Below are positions 1 to 16,089 of a stretch of DNA of 64,000 nucleotides, one piece after another. The stretch is taken from assembly GCA_965221125.1 (NCBI GenBank), contig CBDCRW010000003.1, forward strand, positions 320,001 through 384,000. Direction: 5' to 3'. Source of the DNA: Alphaproteobacteria bacterium. GTDB taxonomy: Bacteria > Pseudomonadota > Alphaproteobacteria > UBA828. Numbering within the stretch: the first letter of the stretch is position 1; the number at the start of each line of letters is the position of its first letter. The notes below the pieces were generated by a model. It was not told the origin of the DNA. It worked only from the letters and a program-made list of their open reading frames with translations, and made no database searches. A program made the position numbers and the translations under genes.

Positions 1-2345
1 AACAGCACCGGCAGCAGCGTCAAATCGGCGATGAACGCAAAGGCAATGATCATCGCGGTCAGGATCCCGACCTGCGCGGTGGGAACGAACGGAGAGAGCG
101 CGAATATCAGGAAGCCGGCCACCAGCACGATCGTCGTCGTGAACACGGCCCGGCCGGCCGTGTCGTAGGAATAACGCACCGCTTCTTCGGGACTCTGGCC
201 CAATTCCTGCCGCGCGCGCCGGTACTTGCTGAGAAAATGAACCGTGTCGTCCACGACAATGCCTACGGTCATGGCGACGACGACGGAGAGCGAAAGTCCC
301 ACCTGCCCGACCGCCAAACCCCACACGCCGAAGCCCAGCGCGGCGGGAATCAGATTGGGGACGATGCTGATCAGGCCGAGGCGAAGCGATCGGAAAGCGA
401 AAAGAAGAATGGCGGAAATGGCCAGGAGCACCACCATTGTCCCGATCAGCATGGCGCGGATGTTGCGCTGGCCGATGTAGGCGAACAGCGCGGCGGGGCC
501 GGTGCTGTTGACGCTCGCGACATGGGCTGCGTTTTCCTTCAGCCAGGCCTCGGCGTGCGCGTTCAGGTCGAGCACCTCCTGCGACGATAGCGTCTCCGCC
601 GATACCGACACGCGCGTGGCGGACCTGGACCTGTCGATCTGGTTGTTCACGCCCAGGCCCAGCGGAAGCGAAAGCTCGTAAAGCAGCAGGTACTGCGCCA
701 CCAGCTCCTGGCTCTCCGGAAGCCGGTACGCGGCCGGGTCGTCGCCGTGCATGCTCTTGTTGAGCTGGCGGAAGGTATCGGTGATGACCGCCACGTGACG
801 CACCGGCGCCTGCGCGCGGTACCACGCGGCGAAATTCGAGACGTCGGCGAGGAAAAGCGGATCGGTCGCGCCGCCCTCGGCATGCGCTTCCAGCGAGTAT
901 TCGAGCAGGGTATTGCCGCTCAGGTGCTCGTCCATGAAATCGGTGTCCTGGCGAAACTCGACGCCTTCGTCGAAGAAATGAACCAGGACATCGTTGAGCT
1001 CGTTGCGCGGAATGGCCGCAGCCATCGCCAGCACGAACACCGCCCAGCCCAGGAACAGCATCTTCCTGTGGCGGAGCACGGAATCCGCCAGCACGTTCGT
1101 ATGCGGCAGGCGGAGCCGGCGCTCCCTTGCGGCAGGAAACGGAAGGAGCGAGAGCACGGCCGGCACAAGCCGGCGGTCCCTCGGCGCGCGAAGCGGGAGA
1201 AGCGAGAGCACGGCCGGCATGAACGTGACGGAGAGAATGAAGGAGGCCGCGATACCGATGGCGACGAAGTTGCCGAGATCGCGGTAGGGCGGCACTTCGG
1301 AAAAGTTCATGCTCAGGAATCCGAGCGTGGTCGTGAGGCTCGCCAGAAACACCGGATGCAGGTTGAGCCTCACGGCTTCGACGATGGCATCGCGCTTGGA
1401 ATCCCCGGCGCGCAGACGCTGCTGCAACGCCACGAGCAAATGCACACAGTTCGCCACCACGATCATCAGCACGATGGTCGGCGCCGGGGCTACGGGCGGA
1501 GAGAACGGCAGACCGAGCCACACGCCCAGGCCGACCGAGACGAGAATGGAAAAGACGATGACGATCCCGGTCCCCACCACGCCCGTCCAGCTGCGGGTGA
1601 GGACGCCGAGGATCACGGCCATGAGCAGCAGGCTCGCGGGCAGAAACATCATCTGGCTGCTGACCGAGGCTTCCAGGAAGGTCTGGTTGACCATGACCGT
1701 GCCGACGACGCGGAGGTCCATGCCGGGGAATTGCTGTTCCGCCTCCGCCGCGAGCGCTCTGGCGAATTCCGCGACTTCGGCCACGGCCTCCAACAGGCCG
1801 TCTTCCGGCAGCTCGACGGTGACGTTGACGACGCTGACATCGCCGTTGAGCCCCAGAATGCTGCCGGCGATGCGCGGGTCGGACAGGGCGATGTCGCGGA
1901 GTCGCGCGCGCGCGTCCGCGTCCGCCAGCTCCTGCGGATCGACCAGGTCCCGCACGTACAGATCGTCGCCGTCGGCGGTCGTGTACTGAAAATTGGCGAG
2001 CGAATCGACGCGCCGCGAAAACGGCGTGTTCCAGGCGGCCTTGGTAAGCCAGGCAGCGGCCGTGAGCGCGTCTTCGGACGTGGCATCGCCATCGTCGGGA
2101 ACGATCAGGAAGACGACGTTCTCGTTCTTCCCATAGGTGTTCTCCAGCGCTTCCAGGCCCAGAAGCTGCGGATTGTCCTCGTCGAAGAAGATCCGGTAGT
2201 TGGCGGAGAACTTGAGTTGCGTGACGCCCATCGCCGCGACCGCAACCACGAGCACCGACGCCACGATGACGATCCAGCGGGCGCCGAGCACCCGCTTCGC
2301 AAATCGCGTTGCGAACGGCTCCCTTGCTATGTCGCGCGTGTCCAC
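1..2345 (-). CDS. MMPL/RND-family transporter permease (3' end runs just off the window edge)
   Basis: Missing from the ORF track because its stop lies outside the window. Translated by hand from GTG at 2345: MDTRDIAREPFATRFAKRVLGARWIVIVASVLVVAVAAMGVTQLKFSANYRIFFDEDNPQLLGLEALENTYG...; the same frame ends ...AFIADLTLLPVL at position 3. About 780 aa, with two periplasmic loop plus TM-bundle halves typical of MMPL. Confidence 0.88.
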   Translation of the reverse strand, partial: MDTRDIAREPFATRFAKRVLGARWIVIVASVLVVAVAAMGVTQLKFSANYRIFFDEDNPQLLGLEALENTYGKNENVVFLIVPDDGDATSEDALTAAAWLTKAAWNTPFSRRVDSLANFQYTTADGDDLYVRDLVDPQELADADARARLRDIALSDPRIAGSILGLNGDVSVVNVTVELPEDGLLEAVAEVAEFARALAAEAEQQFPGMDLRVVGTVMVNQTFLEASVSSQMMFLPASLLLMAVILGVLTRSWTGVVGTGIVIVFSILVSVGLGVWLGLPFSPPVAPAPTIVLMIVVANCVHLLVALQQRLRAGDSKRDAIVEAVRLNLHPVFLASLTTTLGFLSMNFSEVPPYRDLGNFVAIGIAASFILSVTFMPAVLSLLPLRAPRDRRLVPAVLSLLPFPAARERRLRLPHTNVLADSVLRHRKMLFLGWAVFVLAMAAAIPRNELNDVLVHFFDEGVEFRQDTDFMDEHLSGNTLLEYSLEAHAEGGATDPLFLADVSNFAAWYRAQAPVRHVAVITDTFRQLNKSMHGDDPAAYRLPESQELVAQYLLLYELSLPLGLGVNNQIDRSRSATRVSVSAETLSSQEVLDLNAHAEAWLKENAAHVASVNSTGPAALFAYIGQRNIRAMLIGTMVVLLAISAILLFAFRSLRLGLISIVPNLIPAALGFGVWGLAVGQVGLSLSVVVAMTVGIVVDDTVHFLSKYRRARQELGQSPEEAVRYSYDTAGRAVFTTTIVLVAGFLIFALSPFVPTAQVGILTAMIIAFAFIADLTLLPVL
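1113..1220 (-). repeat. In-frame 54-bp degenerate tandem duplication inside the MMPL gene
   Basis: agcgagagcacggccggca occurs at 1147 and 1201 (period 54); it encodes MPAVLSLLPLRAPRDRRL / VPAVLSLLPFPAARERRL. Confidence 0.85.
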
Positions 2346-2382
2346 AGGACCGAGGCCCCTAGTTGCGGGCGGCCTGCTCGCA

Positions 2383-5322
2383 TCATGCGACCTGCCTCCT
2401 GACCAGTTCCCTGAAGACTCCGTCGACCTCCATGAGTTCGTTGAACGAGCCGTCTTGCACGACTCGTCCGGCCTGCAGCACGTAGATGCGGTCGGCCTGC
2501 TGCAGCGTGGACAGCCGGTGGGCGATGACGATCCGGGTGGACGTGAGCAGGGCCAGGTTCTGCATGACCTCGGCCTGGCTCTCGTTGTCGAGCCAGTTGG
2601 TCGCCTCGTCGAGCAGCATGATTCGCGGGCTGCCGATCAGCGAGCGGGCGATGGTGACGCGCTGACTCTCGCCGCCCGACAGGACGGAGCCGCTGCCGCC
2701 TACCATCGTCATCATGCCCATGGGCATGGCCTTGATTTCCCGTTCGATCCCGGCCGCGCGGGCCGCCTGCCACACGTCCTCGGTGGTCGTCCCCTCGTGG
2801 TGGGCGACGATGTTGTCCCACAGATCCTGCGGATGGAGCCGCACCGACTGCGGGACCGCGCCGATCTTCCGGCGCACCTGCTTCAGGTTCAGGTGTCGCA
2901 GGTCGCGCCCGTCATAATACACCGCGCCGGCGGTCGGCCGGTCGATTCCGAGCGCGAGCCGGAAGAGCGTGCTCTTGCCGGCGCCGGATTCGCCCGCGAT
3001 CGCGACGAAGTCGCCGGGCTCCGCGCGGATCGTGACATCGTCGAGGATCAACGGGCCGTCGGGCTCGTAGCGGAAGGACACCCGGTCGAACAGGACCTCG
3101 CCGCCGAGCCGCTCGACCGGCTCTCCTTGCGCCTCGGTCTCGGGCACGGCGGCGAGCAGCGGGCGCATCTGGTCGAACGCCGGCAGCATGGCGGCAACGG
3201 TGCCGAAGGAGTCGCCGAGCCGGGCGATGGCGGCCTGGAAGGCGATGAAGACGGTGTAGACGACGAGAAAATCGCCGACCGGGCCGTTCCGCTCGCCCAC
3301 CGTGACCACTGCGCACAGCAGCACCCCGCCGGCGATAAAGGGGAGCGCGGCGCCGAATGCCCGCGAATGCCCCTCGAGCGCACCCAGCTCGAGCTCCGCG
3401 CGTTTCTGCTCGCGATAATCCTGCGCCCAGATGGCGAACGCCGAGCCTTCCGCGTTTTCCACGCGCAGCTTGGCGATCCCTCCCACGATCTGGAACAGCC
3501 GGCCGGCGACGCGGCGCACCGCGCCGATCATCCGCCCGTAGGGCGCAATCTGGCGCAGCCCGATGCCAACGGTGACCAGCAGCGAGCCGATGCTGAAGAC
3601 GAGAGCGATGCCGCCCAAGGTGGCATCGTAGAAGAAGATGACCCCGAAGACCGGAAGCAGGAAGACGACCGACAGCAGGCTGTCGGCGACGACCCCCTGC
3701 AGCCCGTCGCGGAGGTTCTGGAACGTCATGCCGGACATGGCCAGATCGCCGGCCGGGTGGCGGTGCAGCACGGCCGGCGGAAGGCGCATGAGGCGGTCCC
3801 AGAAGGCGGCTTCGACCCGCGACGCCGAGCGCCCCTCAAGCCGCATCATCGCCGTGCCCTGCAGCAGGTGAAGCATCGCGCCGAGCAGGCCGAACCCCGC
3901 CAGCGTCGCGGCCGCGGCATAGATCGCTCCGGCGCTTCCGCCCGCCACGATGTGGTTCGCGACGAAGCCGAGCGCGAGCGCCGGCAGCAGCTTGATGAGA
4001 CCGCCGGGAAGCCCGGCAAGCACCAGCCGGGCCATGTCCGGGCCCGAGCCCTGCAGGGCAAGCCGCAGCAGGTCGCTCGGCTTCACCTGCCCCGACGGCA
4101 GGGGGCGATAGAACATCCAGGCTTCGTTCTGCAGCGCGGCGGCGCGCTCCGCCGTGACGCGCACGCTGCGCCCGCTGACCGGGTCGATCTCCCGGTAGCG
4201 CCCGAACGTTCCCGGCAGCAGCGCGACCGGCTGGCCGTCCTCGGCGCGGAACGCCAGCAGGGCGTTGCTGTCGCCCCGCCACCACGTCCCCGCGTCCTTG
4301 AACCGCACGCGCCGGGCGCGCACGCCGGACGCATCGAGAATGTCGACGAGGCCGACAGGCGTATCGGAGTGCCCGGAGCGTGCCGGAATCCTGAAATCGA
4401 TTCCCCGGTGGCGGCCGATGATCTTCAGAGCATCCGCCAGAGCCGTGTCCTCGACATCGCTGTCCCGGTCGGTCGGCTGGTCGTAGATATTGAAGAGTCG
4501 CTGCCGGGCAGATCTCTCGGCCGTGCGGCGGCTGGCGACCCTGGCGCGCTCGAGATTCGCATCGTCGACCACGGCCAGCCGGCGGTTGAGGCGTTCCAGG
4601 GCGAAGGCCACCGCGTGAAAGGAGGCGAGAGTCGGCAGCAGCAGGCCTTGCCGCACCAGCGCCTCGGTCGACTTGCCGGATACCTCCGCCTCGTCCAGCA
4701 GGGTGAGCCAGCTCGTCCGCGTCAGCGGTATGGCCGCTTCGTGCGCGCCGCCCGCCCCGGCGAACTCCGCCTGGTCGATCATGTCCATGAACAGGCTCGC
4801 ACCACGCGAGGGTTCGGACACCCACACCACGCCGCGCCTCACGGACAGCGTGCAGGGGGCCAGCGTCTGGGTCACGCCGGGCTCGGCCAGCGCGGTCTTG
4901 CGCGGAAGGTAGCCGACGAAACGCGACAACTCGTCGGTGATGGCGACCAGCCACGTATCGACCTGCTCCGCCAGCTCTTCCGGATGAGCCTCGGAGAGCA
5001 GGGATGCCGGCAGGCGCTTGAGCATGGTGCCCGGCAATCCCTTGGCGATCAGGCCGAGCCGCGTTTCCTTGCCGTCGCCCTGCTCGTCCGGCGCGACACC
5101 CGGCAGCAATTGCCCCGCTTCGCGGCGCAGCAGGTGCTGCGGCGCCGCCTGCTCCACCCCGTCCTTGAATTCGACGAAGAACAGGTCGACGGCGCCCCGG
5201 TCGATGAACCAGACACTGTCCGGGTCGTCGAGCTTGACCGGCAGGTTGCCGGCGCAGGGCACGGACGTGCCGGAGCGCGCGGCGAGCGCGGCGATCGATT
5301 CGTGTTCCGGCCCGGCCTGCAT
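2383..5322 (-). CDS. NHLM/NHLP bacteriocin-system ABC transporter, permease/ATP-binding protein without peptidase (TIGR03797-like)
   Basis: Start ATG overlaps the upstream stop (TGATG at 5324-5320). N-terminal LDDPDSVWFIDRGAVDLF domain, then an ABC TM domain, Walker A GESGAGKS, LSGGESQR, LLDEAT and AHRLST. Confidence 0.9.
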   Translation of the reverse strand: MQAGPEHESIAALAARSGTSVPCAGNLPVKLDDPDSVWFIDRGAVDLFFVEFKDGVEQAAPQHLLRREAGQLLPGVAPDEQGDGKETRLGLIAKGLPGTMLKRLPASLLSEAHPEELAEQVDTWLVAITDELSRFVGYLPRKTALAEPGVTQTLAPCTLSVRRGVVWVSEPSRGASLFMDMIDQAEFAGAGGAHEAAIPLTRTSWLTLLDEAEVSGKSTEALVRQGLLLPTLASFHAVAFALERLNRRLAVVDDANLERARVASRRTAERSARQRLFNIYDQPTDRDSDVEDTALADALKIIGRHRGIDFRIPARSGHSDTPVGLVDILDASGVRARRVRFKDAGTWWRGDSNALLAFRAEDGQPVALLPGTFGRYREIDPVSGRSVRVTAERAAALQNEAWMFYRPLPSGQVKPSDLLRLALQGSGPDMARLVLAGLPGGLIKLLPALALGFVANHIVAGGSAGAIYAAAATLAGFGLLGAMLHLLQGTAMMRLEGRSASRVEAAFWDRLMRLPPAVLHRHPAGDLAMSGMTFQNLRDGLQGVVADSLLSVVFLLPVFGVIFFYDATLGGIALVFSIGSLLVTVGIGLRQIAPYGRMIGAVRRVAGRLFQIVGGIAKLRVENAEGSAFAIWAQDYREQKRAELELGALEGHSRAFGAALPFIAGGVLLCAVVTVGERNGPVGDFLVVYTVFIAFQAAIARLGDSFGTVAAMLPAFDQMRPLLAAVPETEAQGEPVERLGGEVLFDRVSFRYEPDGPLILDDVTIRAEPGDFVAIAGESGAGKSTLFRLALGIDRPTAGAVYYDGRDLRHLNLKQVRRKIGAVPQSVRLHPQDLWDNIVAHHEGTTTEDVWQAARAAGIEREIKAMPMGMMTMVGGSGSVLSGGESQRVTIARSLIGSPRIMLLDEATNWLDNESQAEVMQNLALLTSTRIVIAHRLSTLQQADRIYVLQAGRVVQDGSFNELMEVDGVFRELVRRQVA

Positions 5323-7526
5323 CAGCCCGACATGACCAGCTTGTAGTACGTGCCGTCCTCGTCCGCGATCAGCGCGTCGTGCGTTCCGCGCTGCACCTCC
5401 GCGCCCTTGTCGAGCACGATGATCTCGTCGCAATCCCGCACGGTGCTCAGCCGGTGCGCCACGATCAGGCAGGTGACGCCGCGCCGCCGCAAGGCATCGT
5501 CGACGTATTCCTCCGTCGCGGCGTCTAGAGCGCTGGTCGCCTCGTCCAGAACGATCACCGTCGGATGGCCGACCAGCGCACGGGCGATTTCCAGCCTCTG
5601 CCGCTGGCCGCCGCTGAAATTCACCCCGCCTTCCTCGACCGGGGTCGCGTAGCCTTGAGGCCTGAGCAGGATTTCGTCGTGGATCCGGGCATCCCGCGTC
5701 GCGGCGACGATGGCCTCGTCGGGAACGGCCGGGTTCCACAACGTGATGTTGTCGCGCAGCGAGGCGGAGAAGAGCACGACATCCTGATCCACCATGGAAA
5801 TGGACCGCCGCAGCACGTCCTCCGGAATCTCCTCCCGAAGATGGCCGTCGAACAGCACTTCGCCCGACCAGGGCTGACAGATGCCCGAAACCAGACGCGC
5901 GAGCGTCGACTTTCCGGAACCGCTGGGGCCGACGATGGCAACCCGCTGCCCCGGCTCCAGCACGAGATTGAAGTCCTTTATCAAGGGCGGCCGGCTCTTG
6001 TTGAAACCGAATGTGACGTTTCTGAGTTCGAGATGGCCGGCAAGCTGGAGCCGGCCGTTGAAGGTGGAGATCGACTCCGATTCCTGGCTGCGGCGGCTGA
6101 TGACCGGGTCTTGCGCGGCCTTGGAGATGTCGTCCAGCCGTTGCAGGTCGGTCTCCAGCGCCTTGCGCCTGTCAGCAAACTCCAGGAAGCGCCCGACAGG
6201 CGCGAGAAACATCTCCGCCAGGATGTAGAACCCAACCAGAGTGCCGAGCGTCATGTCTCCGGCCAGGACCATGCTGCCCCCGAGGCCCAGGATCGCCGCT
6301 GCGCGCAGCGCGGCGACGAGGCCCGGAAGCGCGGTGTTGACGGAGCCCAGCTCGGAATAAAGCTGGCGCGCATGCAACTCGCGCGCCTGCTGACCGCTCC
6401 AGCGCGAGAAGAAGCGGTCGTCCGCGCCCGTCATGCGCAGGTTCTCGGCATGGCTCAGCATCTGCATGCCAACGCCGATCAGCAGCCCCTGCTCGCGCCG
6501 CATCGCCTGGCTTCGCACGGCGCGGAGCGCGTTGAGACCATGCGCCAGCAATCCGTGCACGATCGCCAGCAACAGCACGATCAGCGTGAGCACGACGTCG
6601 TAGGCGAACATCGCGATGAGCAGCACGGCGCTCATTGCCATGTCTATGATGAGCACGAGGAACTGGTCCGTCAGGTTCTTCGCTATCCGGTCGACGGACG
6701 AGACCCGGTCGGTCAGGTCGCCGACCAGCCTGTGCTCGAAGAACTCCACGGGCAATCGCAGCAGACGCGACAAGCTCCGGCTGTAGCCGATCACCGAAAT
6801 CCGCACGGCAAGCCGCTTCAGGAAGCGGTGCCTGAGAAGGGACAGGATGTAGACCAGCGCTCCGCCGCCAAGCAGGGCCGCCACCAGTCCGCCCCAGCGC
6901 CCGTGGTTTTCCAGGACATCGTCCACGAACACGCTGAGAGACGCGGGAACGATGAGCGCCAGCAGCGTCAGCATGAATCCGCAGGCGACCACACCGGTGA
7001 GCATGCGCCACGAGTCGACGAGCGAGGCGCTCAGTTGCCGGAACAGGTCGGGCTGCTTGCCGCCGGGGCTGAAATCGGCGCCGCGCTTGAACCGCAGCGC
7101 GATACCGCTGTAGTCCTTCTCGAATTCTTCCGCCGTGAGCCTGCGCCGCCCCGTGGACGGGTCATTGAGATGGTGATGGCGGCCGTCGAACCCCTCGTAG
7201 ACGACGAAATGGCTGAACTGCCAGAACAGGATCAGAGGCAAGTCCAGCTTTTTCAGCTGCGCGGCGCGCACGCTGAGCCCGTTGCATTCGAGACCGTAGT
7301 GCCTGGATGCGCGCAGGATGCTCGCGGCGCTGCTGCCGTCCCGGCTCACCTCGCATTTCTCGCGCAGCTCGGTCAGCGGCACCCAGCGCCCGAAATAGGC
7401 CAGCACGCTGCCGAGGCAGGCGGCCCCGCATTCCGATGCATGCATCTGCAGCAGAATGGGCGTGGTTACCCGTCGCTTCGAGACGTCCGCCTGATCTCCG
7501 GTTTTCTTCGAGGCGCGTCGCAGCAT
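5322..7526 (-). CDS. NHLM/NHLP bacteriocin-system ABC transporter with C39 peptidase (TIGR03796-like)
   Basis: TPILLQMHASECGAACL (catalytic Cys), FWQFSHFVV (His), LNDP; TM domain; GPSGSGKS, FSGGQRQR, LDEAT. Confidence 0.93.
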   Translation of the reverse strand: MLRRASKKTGDQADVSKRRVTTPILLQMHASECGAACLGSVLAYFGRWVPLTELREKCEVSRDGSSAASILRASRHYGLECNGLSVRAAQLKKLDLPLILFWQFSHFVVYEGFDGRHHHLNDPSTGRRRLTAEEFEKDYSGIALRFKRGADFSPGGKQPDLFRQLSASLVDSWRMLTGVVACGFMLTLLALIVPASLSVFVDDVLENHGRWGGLVAALLGGGALVYILSLLRHRFLKRLAVRISVIGYSRSLSRLLRLPVEFFEHRLVGDLTDRVSSVDRIAKNLTDQFLVLIIDMAMSAVLLIAMFAYDVVLTLIVLLLAIVHGLLAHGLNALRAVRSQAMRREQGLLIGVGMQMLSHAENLRMTGADDRFFSRWSGQQARELHARQLYSELGSVNTALPGLVAALRAAAILGLGGSMVLAGDMTLGTLVGFYILAEMFLAPVGRFLEFADRRKALETDLQRLDDISKAAQDPVISRRSQESESISTFNGRLQLAGHLELRNVTFGFNKSRPPLIKDFNLVLEPGQRVAIVGPSGSGKSTLARLVSGICQPWSGEVLFDGHLREEIPEDVLRRSISMVDQDVVLFSASLRDNITLWNPAVPDEAIVAATRDARIHDEILLRPQGYATPVEEGGVNFSGGQRQRLEIARALVGHPTVIVLDEATSALDAATEEYVDDALRRRGVTCLIVAHRLSTVRDCDEIIVLDKGAEVQRGTHDALIADEDGTYYKLVMSG

Positions 7527-7538
7527 CTCTTGGCCGCC

Positions 7539-8078
7539 TCAATCGAAGAAGGCGACCGGAGCCTGGGTGCCCAGCTCAATGACGATCCGGCACTTGCCGC
7601 CCGCAAGCGACGCAAGATCAACGCTTTCGTCGAGCGCGATATCGACGCGGTGCACGGTCACCGGCGCCGTGGACGCAACTGCCGTCAACTCTTCGGACAC
7701 GGGCGCGGGCGACATCGTCTCGATCACGCCGTCGAGCGTGCCGGATGTTCCACCGGCCAGGTCCACCTCTATCGCCACGGAAACACCGGCCTCGATATCC
7801 TCCGCGACGTCGCCCTCGATCCAGACGAGTGCGTGCACGGACCGCTGGCCTTCGGGCGAGTCGATGCCCGGCTCGAGCAACACGCCGTCGACCGCAAGGC
7901 TGCGGGTCACGCTGCCGAAGAAGAGCCACGCCAGGAGGATGCACAGCAACAGGGCGACACCGACGACCAGCAGACGCTCCCGCGGCGTGGAAATCGTCAG
8001 CAGGCGGTCGAGCTGTTCTCGTTCGTCCTTCGCCTCGGCGACAGTATTATGAAACGAGTCGAATGGACTATTAAACAT
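7539..8078 (-). CDS. Miniature NHLM secretion protein (HlyD-like, TIGR03794-related), 179 aa
   Basis: EQLDRLLTISTPR + TM helix + WLFFGSVTRSLAVDGVLL resembles the NHLM adaptor N-terminus, and CRIVIELGTQAPVAFF its C-terminus; the central coiled coil is absent. GGAGG lies upstream. Confidence 0.78.
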   Translation of the reverse strand: MFNSPFDSFHNTVAEAKDEREQLDRLLTISTPRERLLVVGVALLLCILLAWLFFGSVTRSLAVDGVLLEPGIDSPEGQRSVHALVWIEGDVAEDIEAGVSVAIEVDLAGGTSGTLDGVIETMSPAPVSEELTAVASTAPVTVHRVDIALDESVDLASLAGGKCRIVIELGTQAPVAFFD

Positions 8079-8254
8079 AACCGTGCGTCGCCTCCCCGCG
8101 GAGAGCCAGCAGAGACAAAGAAAATCCGATTCGGTGCGGCAAAAACTGGGGAGGTCCTATACAATCTCGACCAAGTGATAACAAGTCCTCAGGTCCGGGA
8201 CGCCGGGACATCGAACGATTCCGGCAAACCAACGCACGATGCGGCACGTTCATC
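8079..8254. promoter_or_regulatory. Divergent promoter region between the export operon and the LolA-like/barrel/halogenase operon
   Basis: 176-bp, relatively A-rich intergenic region between divergent starts; no specific site identified. Confidence 0.45.
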
Positions 8255-9142
8255 ATGAGATCTGCGCGGATACTGCCTGACCGCATAACCGCCGAAAGGC
8301 GGTTCAGCAAGCAGGGCCGTACAAAGAGTTGCACGCGCCCCCGGCGGGCTTCGTTCGGTATCCTCATTCTTGCGCTGGCGTGCCTCGTCCTGCCGGGCGC
8401 ACACGCCCTTGCCCAGGAAGAAACGCCGGAGGACAAGGGTTTGCGGATCGCGCTGGAAGCAAGCGCGCGCAACGACGGCTTTCAGGACTTCACCGCCGGA
8501 ATGACGATGGTGCTGCGCGACCGGCACGGCCGCGAGAGCGTGCGCCAGATGCGCTTCAAGGTGCTGGAGGTGCCGGGAGACGGCGACAAGAGCCTGTTCG
8601 TGTTCGACGAGCCGCGGGACGTGCAGGGAACCGCCCTGCTCACTCACGCGCACGTCAACAGCCAGGACGACCAGTGGCTTTACCTGCCGGCCCTGAAAAG
8701 AGTGAAGCGCATCAACGCCGCGCGGCGTTCGGGATCGTTCATGGGAAGCGAGTTCTCGTACGAGGACATGAGCTCGCTGGAGGTGGAGGAATACACCTAC
8801 AAATACCTTCGCGACGAGCCCTGCGGCGACCTCACCTGCACGGTGATCGAGCAGGTTCCCCTGGATGAGGAGTCCGGCTACAGCCGCAGGGTCGTCTGGC
8901 AGGATGCGGTTGAGCTTCGAACCTGGAAGATGGAGCTTTACGACCGCAAGGGCTCGCACCTGAAGACGCTTACCTTCGCCGACTATCGGCAATACCTGGA
9001 CCAATATTGGCGGGCGGGCGAGCAGACGATGGTCAATCACCTGACCGGCGCGAGCACGGTGCTTGAATGGACCGATTTTCGCTTCCGCACCGATATCGCC
9101 GAAAGCGAGTTTACCCAAACGGCACTCCGACGCGTGCGCTGA
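8255..9142 (+). CDS. Outer-membrane lipoprotein-sorting protein (LolA-like periplasmic carrier)
   Basis: Signal peptide ...LPGAHALA; family motifs DKSLFVFDEPRDVQGTALLT, DDQWLYLPALKRVKRI, SFMGSEFSYEDM and YDRKGSHLKTL. Exact start uncertain. Confidence 0.88.
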   Translation: MRSARILPDRITAERRFSKQGRTKSCTRPRRASFGILILALACLVLPGAHALAQEETPEDKGLRIALEASARNDGFQDFTAGMTMVLRDRHGRESVRQMRFKVLEVPGDGDKSLFVFDEPRDVQGTALLTHAHVNSQDDQWLYLPALKRVKRINAARRSGSFMGSEFSYEDMSSLEVEEYTYKYLRDEPCGDLTCTVIEQVPLDEESGYSRRVVWQDAVELRTWKMELYDRKGSHLKTLTFADYRQYLDQYWRAGEQTMVNHLTGASTVLEWTDFRFRTDIAESEFTQTALRRVR

Positions 9143-10371
9143 TGCGGCCCGCCGGCGCACTTGCGGCCCTCGTGCTCCTGGCCGCCGCCGGTGCCGAGGC
9201 GCAGCCTCTCGATATTTCCGGCGACCTGAGCGCGCAGGCGCAGTGGTATCCGCAATCGCCGGCCTTCGCCGGTCAGCGTTCCGCCACCGGCGGGCTGGTC
9301 CTCGAGCCGACGCTCTACGGGGACGTCGCGAATAGAACCAGCGTCACCCTCACCGCCTTTTATCGCTACGACAGCGCCGATGCGGAGCGCACACATGCGG
9401 ACCTGCGCGAGGCCTACGTGTTGACCTATGGAGACTGGGACGAGAATTCCTGGGAGCTTCGGCTGGGCGTCGACCGCGTGTTCTGGGGCGTGGCCGAGCT
9501 GCACAACCTCGTCGATATCGTCAACCAATTGGACATCGTCGAGCACCCGCGCGACCGCCCCAAACTGGGTCAGCCCATGGCGCACCTGACGCTTTCCGGC
9601 GACTGGGGCATCGCCGAATCTTTTCTGCTGCCGTACCACCGCAAGCGCACGTTTCCGGGGCGTGCCGGGCGCAACCGTTCGGAGCACCCGATCGACGGGG
9701 ACGCCCAGTACGAGAGCGGTGCCGAAGAGCGCCATCTCGATGTTGCGTTTCGCTACAGCAATGCCGTGGACCTGCTCGATTTCGGCCTTACCGCCTTCGT
9801 CGGCACGAGCCGCGAACCTTCGTTTCTCGTTCGCCCCCGGTCGCAGCCGTCGGCAGAAACAGGCACGCGCCTGATCCCGTACTACGAGCAAATCCGACAG
9901 TTCGGGCTGGACGCGCAACTCACGACCGAGCCCTGGCTCTACAAGCTGGAAGCCATTCACCGTCGTGGCGCGCGCAATCTGCTGGGCGTGGTGGAGGATT
10001 ACAGCGCCTTGATCTTCGGCATGGAACGCACGTTCTACGCGGTGTTCGAGTCCCGCGAGGACCTGACCGTTCTCGCCGAGTGGCACTACGACGGCCGCGA
10101 ACGCCGCGCCACGAGCGCCTGGGCGAACGACCTGTTTGTCGCGGGCGCGCTCACGTTCAACGATGTTGACGGCACCGAGCTGGTGGCGGGCATTCTCGCC
10201 GACCTCCGCCACGACACGCGCTCGTTGAACCTGGAATTCAAACGGCGCCTCACGAACAGCTGGACGATGCGCCTGGAAGGGATCGCGTACCTGAGCGCCG
10301 ACCCGCAGGATTTGACCTACGGTGGGCGGCGCGACAGCTACCTGGGCACGGATTTCACCTACAGCTTCTGA
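9142..10371 (+). CDS. Outer-membrane beta-barrel protein of the type found with LolA-like/MMPL genes
   Basis: ATG overlaps the upstream TGA. Signal peptide MRPAGALAALVLLAAAGAEA; DLREAY, VFWGVAELHNLVDIVNQ; amphipathic strands ending in C-terminal Phe (TDFTYSF). Confidence 0.8.
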   Translation: MRPAGALAALVLLAAAGAEAQPLDISGDLSAQAQWYPQSPAFAGQRSATGGLVLEPTLYGDVANRTSVTLTAFYRYDSADAERTHADLREAYVLTYGDWDENSWELRLGVDRVFWGVAELHNLVDIVNQLDIVEHPRDRPKLGQPMAHLTLSGDWGIAESFLLPYHRKRTFPGRAGRNRSEHPIDGDAQYESGAEERHLDVAFRYSNAVDLLDFGLTAFVGTSREPSFLVRPRSQPSAETGTRLIPYYEQIRQFGLDAQLTTEPWLYKLEAIHRRGARNLLGVVEDYSALIFGMERTFYAVFESREDLTVLAEWHYDGRERRATSAWANDLFVAGALTFNDVDGTELVAGILADLRHDTRSLNLEFKRRLTNSWTMRLEGIAYLSADPQDLTYGGRRDSYLGTDFTYSF

Positions 10372-10386
10372 CGGCGGCAGCGCGCG

Positions 10387-11661
10387 ATGATACAGCCGGG
10401 CATTGAATCTCTACGGAAGATCGCGGTCGTCGGGCGGGGAACCGCAGGGTCGCTGGCGGCTGCCAGCGTGACGAGTCTTCTCCCCGACGGCGACCACGAG
10501 CTCCACCACATTTACGACTCGCGCATTCCGGTCATTGGCGTCGGCGAAGGCAGCTGGCCGAGCCTGGTTCAGGAGTTGCAGAAACTGACGAACCTGCCTC
10601 ACGAAACCGTCCAGCAGCGCCTGAAGGGAACGCGCAAGTACGGCGTCGCATTCGAGGGGTGGGGTCGGCGCAACCGAGACTTCACGCACTACTTCACGCC
10701 GCAGCAGGTCTCCTACGCCTACCACCTCTCCGCCGACCTGATGGGGGAGCTGCTGCACGAAAGCACGCGCGCGCAACACATCGACGCGAGAGTGCTCGAC
10801 ATCAGAAGGGTGGACGGCGGCGCGCTCGTGGAACTCGAAGGCATGGCGCCGGAACGCTACGACCTGGTCTTCGATGCCCGCGGTTTTCCCAAGCAGCTTC
10901 AGCCCGAGCGCCAAATCGACATTTCATTCATCCCAACCAATACGGCCATCATCCGCCGCTGCCCGGCAATCATCGAGGAAGAACCGGATCGGCCGGCTCT
11001 GCAGCATACCTATACCCGCGCGGTTGCCCGCCCACACGGCTGGGTCTTCGTCATTCCGCTGACGGTGCACACGTCCTACGGGTACATCTTCAACCGCGAC
11101 GTCTCCAGCCAAGCGGACGTCGAGTCGGACTTCGACGCGTTCCTCAAGGCCGATGGCGTGACCGAATACGAGCAGCGCGCCGTCATTCCGTTCCCCAATT
11201 TCGTCCACCGTCGAATCTTCGATGGCGCGGTGGCGCGCATCGGCAATGCCGCAGCCTTCATGGAGCCGCTCGAAGCGACGGCGATCGTCTCCGCTCAGTT
11301 GCAGATCGGGATGGTTCTCCACATCCGTCTGAATCGCTCGATAGAACATCTCGAGCGCGACGCGCCGGTGGTCAATCGCTTCCTCGTCAACAACATGCTT
11401 TGCTACGGCCTGTTCGTCGGCTGGCACTATTCCTGCGGCTCGACGTACGACAGCCCGTTCTGGCGCCACGCGCGCGAGGGCGCCTGGCCGCAACACCGCA
11501 AGGCCGCGGCACCCGAGATGGTGGATTGTGCCGCGCTCAGCAAGTTCGATGACATGATCGCGCTGCTGAATAGGCCCGTCATCGACAAGGCGGGCTGGAA
11601 CCGGATGTGCGCGGTCCCTCTCACCAGCTATGCCCAGATGTCTCAGGGCCTCGGCTGCTAG
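10387..11661 (+). CDS. Flavin-dependent tryptophan-halogenase family protein (short, 424 aa; candidate peptide halogenase)
   Basis: VVGRGTAG (FAD), IGVGEG, TRKYGVAFEGW (Lys at the PrnA K79-like position), GWVFVIPL (WxWxIP variant), IGNAAAFMEPLEATAI, YDSPFW. Confidence 0.85.
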   Translation: MIQPGIESLRKIAVVGRGTAGSLAAASVTSLLPDGDHELHHIYDSRIPVIGVGEGSWPSLVQELQKLTNLPHETVQQRLKGTRKYGVAFEGWGRRNRDFTHYFTPQQVSYAYHLSADLMGELLHESTRAQHIDARVLDIRRVDGGALVELEGMAPERYDLVFDARGFPKQLQPERQIDISFIPTNTAIIRRCPAIIEEEPDRPALQHTYTRAVARPHGWVFVIPLTVHTSYGYIFNRDVSSQADVESDFDAFLKADGVTEYEQRAVIPFPNFVHRRIFDGAVARIGNAAAFMEPLEATAIVSAQLQIGMVLHIRLNRSIEHLERDAPVVNRFLVNNMLCYGLFVGWHYSCGSTYDSPFWRHAREGAWPQHRKAAAPEMVDCAALSKFDDMIALLNRPVIDKAGWNRMCAVPLTSYAQMSQGLGC

Positions 11662-14443: not shown

Positions 14444-15271
14444 ATGGCGCAGGCGCTCGGAGCTGCCGCCCCGGCCGATAGCGAGCCGCGGGTGGAGCCC
14501 GGCGCCGCGCTCCAGGTCGCGGACCTCTACAAGCGCTTCGGCGACCTGGAGGTGCTGAAGGGCGTCTCGCTCACGGCCTGCGAGCACGACGTCATCGCCA
14601 TCCTGGGCGCGAGCGGCTCCGGCAAGAGCACCCTGCTCCGCTGCATCAACCTGCTGGAGGTGCCGGATGCCGGCGAGGTCCGCGTCGGCGGCGAGCTGAT
14701 CCGCATGCGGACCGGCCGGCACGGCCAGGCGATGCCGGCGGACCGCCGCCAGGTGGACCGCATCCGCGCCCGGCTCGGCATGGTCTTCCAGCAGTTCAAC
14801 CTGTGGTCGCATCTGACCGTGCTGCAGAACGTCATCGAGGCGCCCATCCACGTGCTCAGGCTGCCCCGGCGCGAGGCGGTGGAGCGGGCGCGGGCGCTGC
14901 TCGACAAGGTCGGCCTCGCGGACAAGCACGACTACTTCCCGGCCCACCTGTCCGGGGGGCAGGAGCAGCGGGCCGCCATCGCCCGCGCGCTCGCGATGGA
15001 GCCCGACGTCATGCTGTTCGACGAGCCCACGTCGGCGCTCGACCCGGAGCTGGTCGGCGAGGTGCTGAAGGTCATCCGCGACCTCGCCGAGGAAGGCCGG
15101 ACCATGCTGATCGTCACCCACGAGGTCGGCTTCGCCCGCGACGTGTCGTCGCGCACCGTGTTCCTGCACGAGGGTCAGATCGAGGAGGAAGGCGCGTCGA
15201 GGGCGGTGCTCGACGACCCGCAGTCGCCGCGATTCAGGCGGTTCCTCTCGGGCCAGCGCGGCGACGCCTAG
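14444..15271 (+). CDS. Polar amino-acid ABC transporter ATP-binding protein (HisP/AotP-like)
   Basis: GASGSGKS, MVFQQFNLWSHLTV, LSGGQEQR, LFDEPTSALDPELVGEV. Confidence 0.93.
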   Translation: MAQALGAAAPADSEPRVEPGAALQVADLYKRFGDLEVLKGVSLTACEHDVIAILGASGSGKSTLLRCINLLEVPDAGEVRVGGELIRMRTGRHGQAMPADRRQVDRIRARLGMVFQQFNLWSHLTVLQNVIEAPIHVLRLPRREAVERARALLDKVGLADKHDYFPAHLSGGQEQRAAIARALAMEPDVMLFDEPTSALDPELVGEVLKVIRDLAEEGRTMLIVTHEVGFARDVSSRTVFLHEGQIEEEGASRAVLDDPQSPRFRRFLSGQRGDA

Positions 15272-15312
15272 GCCATGCAAACCACCCACCACCGGCGAAG
15301 GAGAACGGAGAG

Positions 15313-16089
15313 ATGAGGAAATTCACATTCTTGGGCGTGCTAGCGGCGCTCGCGCTCGCGGCCGGCGCGGCGGCGGCCGACATGAAGAAGGTCACGCTCG
15401 GCACCGAGGGCGCCTACCCGCCCTTCAACTGGATCGACGAGAACGGCGACCTGCAGGGCTTCGACATCGAGATCGGCAACGCGCTCTGCGCTGCGGCGAA
15501 GCTCGACTGCACCTGGGAGGTGCAGGACTGGGACGGCATCATCCCCGGCCTGCTCGCCAAGAAGTACGACACCATCGTCGCCTCGATGTCGATCACCGAG
15601 GAGCGCAAGCAGAAGGTGGACTTCACCGGCAAGTACTACACCACGCCGGCCAAGTTCGTGCGCATGAAGGGCTCGGGCATCGAGATCAGCGACGAGGGCC
15701 TGGACGGCCTGGCCGTCGGCGTGCAGCGGGCGACCATCCACGAGAACTTCCTGCGCGACAACTACGGCGACATCGTCACCATCAAGGCCTACGCCACCCA
15801 GGACGAGGCCAACCTCGACTTCGTCGCCGGCCGCGTCGACCTGCTGCTGGCGGATTCCATGGCCCTGCAGGGCGGCTTCCTCGACACGCCCGACGGCGCG
15901 GATGCCGAGTTCGTCGGCCCCGACTTCACCGATCCGCAGTGGTTCGGCGACGGCGCCGGCATCGCGGTGCGCAAGGGCGAGGGCGAGCTGCTGGAAGCGC
16001 TCAACGGCGCCATCGCGGCGATCCGCGCCGACGGCACCTACAAGGCGATCAACGACAAGTACTTCGATTTCGACGTCTACGGCGACTGA
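15313..16089 (+). CDS. Polar amino-acid ABC substrate-binding protein (HisJ/ArgT-like)
   Basis: GGAGA RBS; signal peptide MRKFTFLGVLAALALAAGAAAA; GTEGAYPPFN, DWDGIIPGL, SMSITEER. Confidence 0.93.
   Translation: MRKFTFLGVLAALALAAGAAAADMKKVTLGTEGAYPPFNWIDENGDLQGFDIEIGNALCAAAKLDCTWEVQDWDGIIPGLLAKKYDTIVASMSITEERKQKVDFTGKYYTTPAKFVRMKGSGIEISDEGLDGLAVGVQRATIHENFLRDNYGDIVTIKAYATQDEANLDFVAGRVDLLLADSMALQGGFLDTPDGADAEFVGPDFTDPQWFGDGAGIAVRKGEGELLEALNGAIAAIRADGTYKAINDKYFDFDVYGD

Follow-up and report, generated by a model that had tools for sequence, protein, structure and literature searches.

Gene organization of the locus

We analyzed a 64,000-nt stretch of DNA (the window) that covers positions 320,001 to 384,000 of contig CBDCRW010000003.1 from an Alphaproteobacteria bacterium (assembly GCA_965221125.1), together with its left flank (L001, contig C3:300001-320000). 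The left end of the window carries part of a gene cluster for a peptide that is made by ribosomes and modified after translation (RiPP). It includes (i) two ATP-binding cassette (ABC) transporters, ABC1 and ABC2, with a short adaptor protein, termed here the mini-adaptor, (ii) a tryptophan halogenase, and (iii) an MMPL-family pump, a LolA-like periplasmic protein and an outer-membrane beta-barrel, referred to below as the trio (Table 1). All positions refer to the window unless they are prefixed.

The order and strands of these seven genes were checked against the coordinates and translations of the open reading frames (ORFs), and they confirm the two divergent, tightly coupled operons that an earlier note on this DNA had described. 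On the minus strand, the adaptor and ABC1 genes are 12 nt apart, the ABC1 stop codon and the ATG of ABC2 overlap by one base, and 37 nt separate ABC2 from the pump gene. On the plus strand, the stop codon of the LolA-like gene and the barrel ATG overlap by one base, and the gap between the barrel and halogenase genes is 15 nt. The barrel start at 9142 is the ATG that precedes its signal peptide; a longer ORF from 9067 would overlap the LolA-like gene by 76 nt.

Table 1. Features of the cluster, its left flank and the alternative module of Gemmatimonadota-type loci
Feature	Position	Strand	Evidence or remark
MMPL/HAE3 RND (resistance-nodulation-division) pump	window 1-2345	-	810 aa; last 87 nt left of window edge
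ABC2, NHLM-type ABC transporter without peptidase domain, ~980 aa	2383-5322	-	TIGR03797, 679.3 bits
N-terminal extension of ABC2, ~294 aa	window 4447-5328	-	conserved full-length across loci
ABC1, NHLM-type ABC transporter with N-terminal C39 peptidase	5322-7526	-	TIGR03796, 839.6 bits; Peptidase_C39, E 3e-33
Mini-adaptor, 179 aa	7539-8078	-	residues 21-71 match TIGR03794
Divergent intergenic region, 176 nt	8079-8254	.	coordinates
LolA-like periplasmic protein, 295 aa	8255-9142	+	PF17131, E 5e-61
Outer-membrane beta-barrel, 409 aa including signal peptide	9142-10371	+	model; distant DUF1302 likeness
Flavin-dependent tryptophan halogenase	10387-11661	+	Trp_halogenase, E 1.1e-44
NHLP precursor, 83 aa	L001:19512-19763	-	TIGR03793, 70 bits (cut-off 50.9)
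Conserved protein between YcaO and precursor, 372 aa	L001:18274-19392	+	no Pfam/NCBIfam family
YcaO, fused thiazole/oxazole-modified microcin (TOMM) cyclodehydratase, 772 aa	L001:15947-18265	+	leader-binding domain and YcaO domain
FA_desaturase-GlnE-like gene, two pieces	L001:8862-10487 and 15078-15914 (C3:308862-315914)		split by mobile-element insertion
NHLP-fused protein, 433 aa	L001:7483-8784	+	NHLP-like N-terminus
Gemmatimonadota-type module	L013:1856-7170; likewise L019, L025, L030, L049, L054, L058, L059, L073-L075		

Identification of the locus as an srp cluster

The earlier note had recognized an NHLP/proteusin RiPP locus from the transporter genes, and the sequence left of position 1 bears this out, as it contains an NHLP (nitrile-hydratase-leader-peptide) precursor gene, 150 nt downstream of the pump gene and on the same strand, and a YcaO gene. 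The precursor ends in ...NITEEQLEAISAG LCCCW, its tail reading ...EEQLEAISAG|LCCCW with a cleavage site of the Gly/Ala-Gly type before the core. The same LCCCW core was present in 34 of the 35 precursors recovered from related loci. On TIGR03604 the YcaO protein reaches 268.6 bits (cut-off 219), and on TIGR03882 132 bits; its counterparts in related loci are 65-85% identical to it. The halogenase has a Trp_halogenase domain with GxGxxG at residue 16 and a lysine at position 84, the number that the catalytic lysine has in SrpI; the halogenases of srp loci are 67-87% identical to it.

The srp clusters are reportedly those in which Nguyen et al. (JACS 2021) found an SrpE precursor, an SrpC YcaO protein and an SrpI brominase. 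For these sponge-derived RiPP proteusin (srp) clusters, the available passages of three papers describe the LCCCW core, SrpC and SrpI: SrpC, a YcaO protein, converts the three cysteines of the core to thiazolines, and SrpI is an obligate, leader-dependent brominase with the catalytic residue Lys84 that converts the C-terminal tryptophan to 6-bromo-tryptophan (PMC10858898; PMC10286304; PMC12615548). A further report, in the part available, names the LCCCW core and places srp precursors across bacterial phyla in sponges (bioRxiv 10.1101/2023.06.09.544420).

Since an LCCCW core, a YcaO protein and a tryptophan halogenase define the published srp clusters, the locus is identified by its gene content as an srp biosynthetic cluster. 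It shares with them the LCCCW NHLP precursor, the leader motif NxTEEQL conserved in srp precursors, the fused YcaO protein, the flavin halogenase with Lys84 and the spread over many phylum labels of sponge-associated genomes, and no difference was found in the chemistry genes that could be compared. The halogenase is the putative counterpart of SrpI, and bromination is predicted here. The RiPP part of the locus is thus already known; therefore the locus matters for transport. The novelty lies in a variant of an orphan envelope module that is dedicated to the cluster, and in a mini-adaptor that is universal in these clusters.

The export cassette and its short adaptor

The NHLM export cassette, as given in the available text of Haft et al. 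2010 (PMC2887384), comprises a HlyD-like adaptor (TIGR03794), an ABC transporter with a C39 peptidase (TIGR03796) and a second ABC transporter (TIGR03797). ABC1 and ABC2 each span the whole of the respective profile, which is by far the best hit for each, and both score just below the curated cut-offs: 839.6 bits against 853.3 for ABC1, and 679.3 bits over profile positions 2-686 against 709.4 for ABC2. The locus agrees with the cassette in having two ABC transporters, one with a C39 peptidase, beside an NHLP precursor, and in the first place of the adaptor gene in its operon. It differs in these sub-threshold scores, in an adaptor of 179 amino acids against a profile of 421 positions, and in the 294 additional N-terminal amino acids of ABC2. 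This extension has no match in Pfam or NCBIfam; the ABC2 relatives in related loci are full-length and 70-88% identical. ABC1 is expected to be the leader-cleaving exporter.

The adaptor aligns only with the beginning of the TIGR03794 profile (residues 21-71 with positions 6-56 of 421; E 1e-4, 21.3 bits against a cut-off of 156.2). A search among proteins of 98-314 amino acids returned 908 database proteins at E ≤ 1e-3; the 120 relatives listed among these matches are nearly all of ~183 amino acids and 61-94% identical, and their alignment has 30 invariant columns. The corresponding search among longer proteins gave only two matches. As the relatives are short throughout, the mini-adaptor is not a fragment or a broken gene. 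It adjoins ABC1 in all 80 related loci described below.

In an AlphaFold model of low confidence (pLDDT 62), the adaptor forms helices at residues 7-28 and 32-54 followed by seven strands, and no helix longer than seven residues follows the membrane helix. The modeled parts would be a conserved cytoplasmic helix at the N-terminus, a single helix through the membrane and, in the periplasm, a small beta domain resembling those of membrane-fusion proteins, with neither an alpha-hairpin nor a lipoyl domain. The claim of the earlier note that the adaptor lacks its TolC-docking hairpin therefore stands, on a weak model and on the absence of any match beyond profile position 56 of 421. Foldseek gave no match at E ≤ 1e-3, the weak top ones being EmrA, BesA, MacA and HlyD (HlyB/D structure 7sgr), and a profile search of PDB sequences returned only chance-level matches (E 0.26 and 1.9). 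The closest Atlas clusters contain short 'HlyD family' proteins, one of them with Beta-barrel_AprE/LcnD_C domains. These weak Foldseek hits, the secondary structure and the Atlas neighbors tentatively suggest a likeness to membrane-fusion proteins.

In type I secretion of the HlyBD-TolC and CvaAB-TolC kind, an ABC transporter works with TolC and an HlyD-type adaptor that has a coiled-coil hairpin. The srp exporter resembles these systems in joining a C39-ABC transporter with a single-pass adaptor whose N-terminus is cytoplasmic, and differs from them in that the adaptor has one small periplasmic beta domain and no coiled-coil hairpin able to reach TolC. The earlier note had seen no TolC gene in view. 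We likewise found no TolC-family (OEP) gene in the cluster region and none within the srp loci of five other srp genomes; this genome holds one OEP gene, on another contig, and each of the five others has several OEP matches elsewhere. Nor was a full-length adaptor with TolC present just upstream, and no protein anywhere in the genome matches TIGR03794 above its cut-off. From these gene contents, the use of TolC by srp export appears neither indicated nor excluded.

Adaptor and ABC1 genes were also observed on contigs labeled Candidatus Synechococcus spongiarum (2.7 kb) and Bifidobacteriaceae (L035, L067), where horizontal transfer or binning errors are possible.

The MMPL pump, LolA-like protein and beta-barrel

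The MMPL protein matches the Pfam MMPL domain (E 2.7e-31, 109 bits) and also the Sterol-sensing and Patched SSD domains. Its best NCBIfam profile is HAE3 (TIGR00921), at 144 bits below the cut-off of 351.9. The LolA-like protein scores 206 bits on PF17131 and 40.7 bits on DUF1329, above the cut-off of 23.1; it has a signal peptide with a probable cleavage site AHA|LAQ and no conserved lipobox cysteine, the cysteine of the signal region being replaced in three srp-type rows. Its PDB relatives are 3bk5 (E 2e-106), 4z48 and 3buu, the entries that are also cited for the AmeABCD system (PMC6394551).

The barrel matches DUF1302 over 61 residues only (21.6 bits, below the cut-off of 23.2) and belongs to a family with 2066 representative relatives at E ≤ 1e-3. 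Its AlphaFold model, built with 65 aligned relatives, has a pLDDT of 94.2, a pTM of 0.89 and ~18-20 strands. Foldseek gave 236 PDB matches at E ≤ 1e-3, with AlgE, an exporter of 18 strands, reaching the best TM-scores (0.55-0.57); among solved structures, no sequence relative of the barrel was found.

The carrier-barrel pair, one of those that the earlier note had proposed for modeling, gave a predicted complex. With the mature LolA-like protein and the mature barrel both entered as alignments, the scores were 0.90, 0.90 and 0.89, and the highest of three controls scored 0.02; the contacts agree by at least 93% across runs, and the pLDDT of the partners is at least 87. In calibration, 58 of 80 solved complexes and 2 of 110 mismatched pairs scored this high, counts that hold only roughly when own alignments are used. 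Since the barrel has no solved sequence relative, the pass is not a recall of a known complex. In the model, which lends support to a putative binding of the two proteins, the LolA-like protein contacts the ends of the N- and C-terminal barrel strands and turn residues, i.e., the periplasmic rim, which suggests a cap docked on the barrel and not a free shuttle. The predicted contacts join barrel residues 24-28, 94-98, 112-117 and 406-409 to residues 119-124 and 147-154 of the LolA-like protein. The picture of a LolA-fold protein that ferries cargo to the barrel is weakened by this model. A search for fusions of the two proteins (the Rosetta-stone test) covered nine long barrel relatives, none with a LolA domain; two carry AMIN domains and one a Legionella_OMP match.

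Among studied systems, the nearest relative of the trio is AmeABCD, the tetrapartite HAE3 RND system of Castellaniella defragrans; when it is deleted, according to the available part of the report, monoterpene tolerance falls and Nile Red accumulation rises (PMC6394551). Both systems encode together an RND pump (HAE3-like in the srp locus), a periplasmic protein of the LolA superfamily and an outer-membrane barrel (distantly DUF1302-like in the srp locus); in both, a classical membrane-fusion protein and TolC are missing, and the proposed efflux of hydrophobic compounds is tied to neighboring metabolic genes. Several differences were observed: (i) the srp locus has no AmeC-like (COG4447-like) fourth protein and no spare ORF in either operon, (ii) its LolA-like protein is of the short PF17131 type (295 amino acids), whereas AmeB is a DUF1329 protein of 451 amino acids, (iii) its barrel has 409 amino acids and falls below the DUF1302 cut-off, as compared with 605 amino acids, and (iv) its module is divided between two operons and linked with a RiPP cluster, whereas that of C. 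defragrans belongs to a catabolic island.

Distribution of the trio among srp loci

One genome per species was scanned for the adaptor. This gave 234 stretches with a relative, from which 80 loci were kept with at most 10 kb on each side, 47 of them with full flanks. The loci carry the labels Pseudomonadota, Binatia, Thermodesulfobacteriota/Myxococcota-type 'delta' groups, Acidobacteriota, Gemmatimonadota, Nitrospinota, Latescibacterota and others. Ten cluster proteins of the window were compared with all 80 loci, and a trio gene was counted at 60% identity or more.

Of the 80 loci, 26 have one or more trio genes within 10 kb. The full trio was found in 11 loci, the MMPL and LolA-like genes in 3, the MMPL and barrel genes in 1, the MMPL gene alone in 10, the LolA-like gene alone in 1 and no trio gene in 54; for the 47 loci with full flanks, the same six classes count 11, 2, 1, 6, 0 and 27. 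Five of the six full-flank loci with the MMPL gene alone were searched genome-wide, and in all five an srp-type LolA-like gene (74-80% identity) lies 0.6-5 kb past the locus edge, in stretches that contain the precursor, LolA-like and halogenase genes and, in four of the five, the barrel gene. Thus, the 10-kb flank undercounts complete trios. Whole-genome searches of five trio-less genomes detected no srp-type LolA-like gene; the best matches there either lie megabases from the srp locus, at 59-66% identity, or are 27% identical, or are lacking altogether. All trio-bearing loci are labeled Pseudomonadota, Binatia or 'delta', and none is labeled Acidobacteriota, Gemmatimonadota, Nitrospinota or Latescibacterota.

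In srp clusters the short adaptor is thus universal, whereas the trio is optional; therefore, the trio is not a compensation for the missing hairpin. This separates two features that the earlier note had linked. Its expectation that the trio is conserved beside NHLM transporters holds for a subset of loci, where the trio forms a dedicated subclade (see below), and fails for the 54 loci lacking any trio gene within 10 kb.

In a tree of ABC1 with 67 rows, from which 13 of the 80 loci were excluded (ABC1 match below 95% of the query), the trio label requires at least nine changes, four of them forced by supported branches; shuffled labels gave a mean of 20.4. Relatives share labels, and with 26 of 64 inner branches open, the tree is poorly resolved, and the number of trio gains and losses is not readable from it.

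Three loci, L100 (G008:C2:1683000-1694700), L079 and L024, keep the MMPL and LolA-like genes and have no barrel gene at its usual place; in L100, the halogenase gene directly follows the LolA-like gene. The barrel gene in these loci may have been lost or moved.

A trio subclade tied to srp clusters

Relatives of the LolA-like protein in metagenome contigs fall into two groups. All eight relatives with 73-90% identity lie beside srp genes (precursor, adaptor, ABC transporters or halogenase), whereas none of the other seven (47-64% identity over the full length, and one partial of 72%) has an srp gene next to it. The latter seven adjoin diverged MMPL (28-44%) or barrel (23-41%) genes, or sit on short contigs. 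Generic LolA-like copies, at 54-66% identity, occur elsewhere in the same genomes. Across phylum labels, the trio genes are 68-86% identical, and the core srp genes fall in the same range. Finally, the trio is interleaved with srp genes in at least three orders: ABC2 > MMPL > precursor; MMPL > adaptor; and precursor > LolA-like > barrel > halogenase. Because of the clean split of the LolA-like relatives, the generic copies elsewhere, the shared identity range and the interleaving, we assign the trio to an srp-dedicated subclade of a generic MMPL, LolA-like and barrel module.

The srp loci of the Gemmatimonadota type contain another module, which consists of a different PF17131 LolA-like gene (E 3e-48), MacB_PCD/FtsX permeases and an ABC ATPase, and which sits between the precursor or a 371-aa gene and the halogenase. 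In some of these loci, the precursor directly precedes the permease, in the place of the LolA-like gene. The loci are 91-98% identical to one another and were therefore counted as one lineage. Judged by its genes, this LolA-like/MacB module is an independent parallel to the trio.

Both modules can be compared with the Lol pathway (LolCDE-LolA-LolB), in which LolA carries lipoproteins from an inner-membrane motor to LolB. In the srp locus analyzed here, a LolA-fold periplasmic protein is likewise proposed to take hydrophobic cargo from an inner-membrane motor, and in the Gemmatimonadota srp clusters the motor is itself an ABC transporter of the MacB/LolCDE type. The trio differs from the Lol pathway in that its motor is of the RND type, its acceptor is a beta-barrel and not LolB, and its presumed cargo is a small peptide and not a lipoprotein.

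Proposed role of the trio and alternative explanations

On balance, we favor, with some reserve, a reading in which the srp cluster, in those hosts that have the trio, has recruited it as a dedicated copy of a widespread module and uses it for an AmeABCD-like accessory second stage of efflux of its hydrophobic product. This reading draws on the analogy with AmeABCD and on the genomic linkage. In this reading, the trio is an accessory second stage and neither the core export route nor a substitute for the adaptor hairpin.

The pathway would proceed as follows: (i) in the cytoplasm, the precursor is presumably cyclodehydrated and brominated with its leader attached, as others have shown for the family; (ii) the C39-ABC transporter would cut after ...SAG and, with ABC2 and the mini-adaptor, move the product out of the cytoplasm, as their families imply; (iii) the product would be a very hydrophobic five-residue peptide of ~650 Da by our own arithmetic; (iv) the hairpin-less adaptor probably only organizes the ABC pair at the inner membrane, and since it has no TolC-docking hairpin, the product is probably released to the periplasm or to the inner membrane's outer leaflet; and (v) in hosts with the trio, the MMPL pump, powered by proton-motive force, would take the greasy product from the inner membrane or the periplasm and hand it to the LolA-like protein docked at the periplasmic mouth of the barrel, from where it would pass outside. 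With the trio, export and self-protection would be one act.

Several observations weigh against the proposed pathway. In 54 of the 80 loci and in all five whole genomes of trio-less hosts, the srp cluster does without the trio; those hosts do not need it to make and export the product. Trio presence tracks the host phylum labels, so shared ancestry inflates the counts. The mini-adaptor model, as given above, is of low confidence. According to the available part of one study, the only characterized HAE3 pumps move lipids (HpnN) or solvents (AmeD) and not peptides (PMC6394551). The searchable portions of the srp literature (bioRxiv 10.1101/2023.06.09.544420, PMC9426513, PMC10286304, PMC12615548) contain no experiment on, or mention of, srp transport genes, the ~180-aa adaptor or an MMPL/LolA-like/barrel set, which the figures of the original description may show; the transporter passages seen in PMC12537861 concern another cluster, dpr. 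A full-text literature search for RiPP or proteusin with MMPL or LolA listed no paper linking them, except for one genome description. Nor do the searchable portions of the srp literature describe a mature srp natural product, and other conserved srp genes may change the cargo. Finally, the FA_desaturase-GlnE-like gene of this cluster is split by an insertion, and the cluster may therefore be partly disabled here.

The alternative that survives best, although we consider it unlikely, is that the trio carries another cargo, either a lipid or a lipidated (prenylated or acylated) derivative made by unstudied srp genes, or envelope lipids that protect the producer. Candidate makers of such a derivative are the FA_desaturase-GlnE-like protein, the 372-aa protein and the NHLP-fused terpene-cyclase/prenyltransferase-like protein. 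Among the genes conserved in srp clusters are one for a membrane FA_desaturase-like protein and one whose product weakly matches SQHop_cyclase/Prenyltrans, and the 372-aa protein has a Trp_DMAT neighbor in the Atlas (score 0.90 at low recognition, a lead only). The lipids and solvents moved by characterized HAE3 pumps, in the part of PMC6394551 available, point the same way, as do the Pseudomonas DUF1302/DUF1329 genes, for which an available passage reports fitness effects on fatty esters and proposes export of cell-wall components (bioRxiv 10.1101/2020.07.04.188060). However, the lipid-related srp genes occur also in trio-less clusters and thus are no predictors of the trio; the prenyltransferase lead obtained no PDB profile hit; and the searchable portions of the srp literature report no lipidated srp product.

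We regard as very improbable a strict form of the model of the earlier note, in which the adaptor has lost its hairpin and the trio forms an obligatory, TolC-independent route across the outer membrane with the LolA-like protein as a free shuttle between pump and barrel. It would account for the hairpin-less adaptor, for the lack of an OEP gene in this cluster and in the five other srp loci, and for a trio embedded in both operons. However, the same short adaptor stands beside ABC1 in 80 of 80 loci, 54 of which have no trio gene within 10 kb, and none of the five trio-less genomes contains an srp-type LolA-like gene anywhere; these counts rule out the trio as a general export route or as a replacement for the missing TolC dock. 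Moreover, every genome checked has OEP genes elsewhere, so the use of TolC is possible, and the complex model puts the LolA-like protein on the barrel rim.

There is equally little chance that the trio hitch-hikes, as a generic efflux module for solvents or lipids that by coincidence shares a mobile island with the cluster in some Proteobacteria-like hosts and has no functional tie to the RiPP: although it follows host phylum labels and not clean ABC1-tree clades (the changes counted above), has generic copies at 54-66% identity in the same genomes and lies in a lower-GC3 island beside transposition genes, this explanation is opposed by the srp-specific subclade (8 of 8 close LolA-like relatives beside srp genes, against 0 of 7 others), by at least three interleaved gene orders that would be hard to keep by chance through rearrangements, by an identity range across labels equal to that of the core srp genes, and by the second, unrelated LolA-like module of the Gemmatimonadota srp clusters.

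A broader version of the proposed second-stage efflux, about which we are more doubtful than confident, is that srp clusters recruited LolA-fold envelope modules at least twice independently, once, in Pseudomonadota/Binatia-type hosts, as an HAE3 pump with a LolA-like cap docked on a barrel and once, in Gemmatimonadota, as a MacB-type ABC transporter with a LolA-like protein. Both modules would carry a tiny lipophilic, perhaps lipidated, peptide after its release by a peptidase-containing ABC transporter (PCAT) with a hairpin-less adaptor.

To our knowledge, the module of an MMPL pump, a LolA-like protein and a barrel is very common in bacteria, and none of its cargoes has been chemically identified. 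If the broader version is true, this widespread orphan machine would have in the brominated thiazoline peptide its first defined natural cargo, and no two-stage export route independent of TolC would have been described for a RiPP before. The product linked with the dedicated subclade has a known core structure, and its bromine would be an easy mass-spectrometric tag; the cargo of the module is therefore testable. The universal ~180-aa adaptor appears to have no hairpin of the usual kind with which to contact TolC, and one may ask how such peptidase-ABC exporters work in bacteria with two membranes. These findings also bear on how sponge symbionts of many phyla release the same small molecule.

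Other conserved genes of the cluster and genomic setting

In relatives, the FA_desaturase-GlnE-like gene encodes a single 798-aa protein (e.g., L005:17167-19563), whereas here it is broken at about residue 535 by a ~4.6 kb insertion. The cargo of the insertion includes an rve/Mu-type transposase, a TniB-like AAA_22 ATPase, an AAA_25/MarR protein and a 211-aa ORF.

The 372-aa protein is 57-67% identical in srp clusters across phylum labels. The Trp_DMAT cluster mentioned above, at rank 12, is its nearest Pfam-carrying Atlas cluster. A profile search of PDB sequences gave no hits and left the prenyltransferase lead without support; if the protein were an aromatic prenyltransferase, it would give a lipidated product. 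The NHLP-fused protein, which has 433-456 amino acids in srp clusters (also L013:15659-16960 and L005:15714-17084), scores 43 bits on TIGR03793, below the cut-off, with its NHLP-leader-like N-terminus, and its second domain has weak matches to SQHop_cyclase/Prenyltrans repeats, so that a leader-like domain is joined to a possible enzyme. Its gene directly follows ABC2 in most srp loci, with 70-84% identity of the protein.

The GC content at third codon positions (GC3) is 0.80-0.86 in the cluster genes, below the 0.94-0.97 of the CN_hydrolase and dihydropyrimidinase housekeeping genes on the right; the srp cluster therefore looks like an acquired island. A scan for promoter and terminator consensus sequences found one promoter-like site, inside the adaptor gene, which is no more than in shuffled sequences (mean 0.8).

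In the metatranscriptome run X20, contigs matched all 30 bins across the region, those of the MMPL, LolA-like and barrel genes among them; these contigs are short and mostly from relatives of 85-97% identity, and DNA carry-over is possible. Parts of this stretch are present in runs labeled as sponge and coral metagenomes. Although it tells little in a mobile cluster, the closest ABC1 in the tree, at 85% identity, comes from a locus labeled Rhodospirillaceae.

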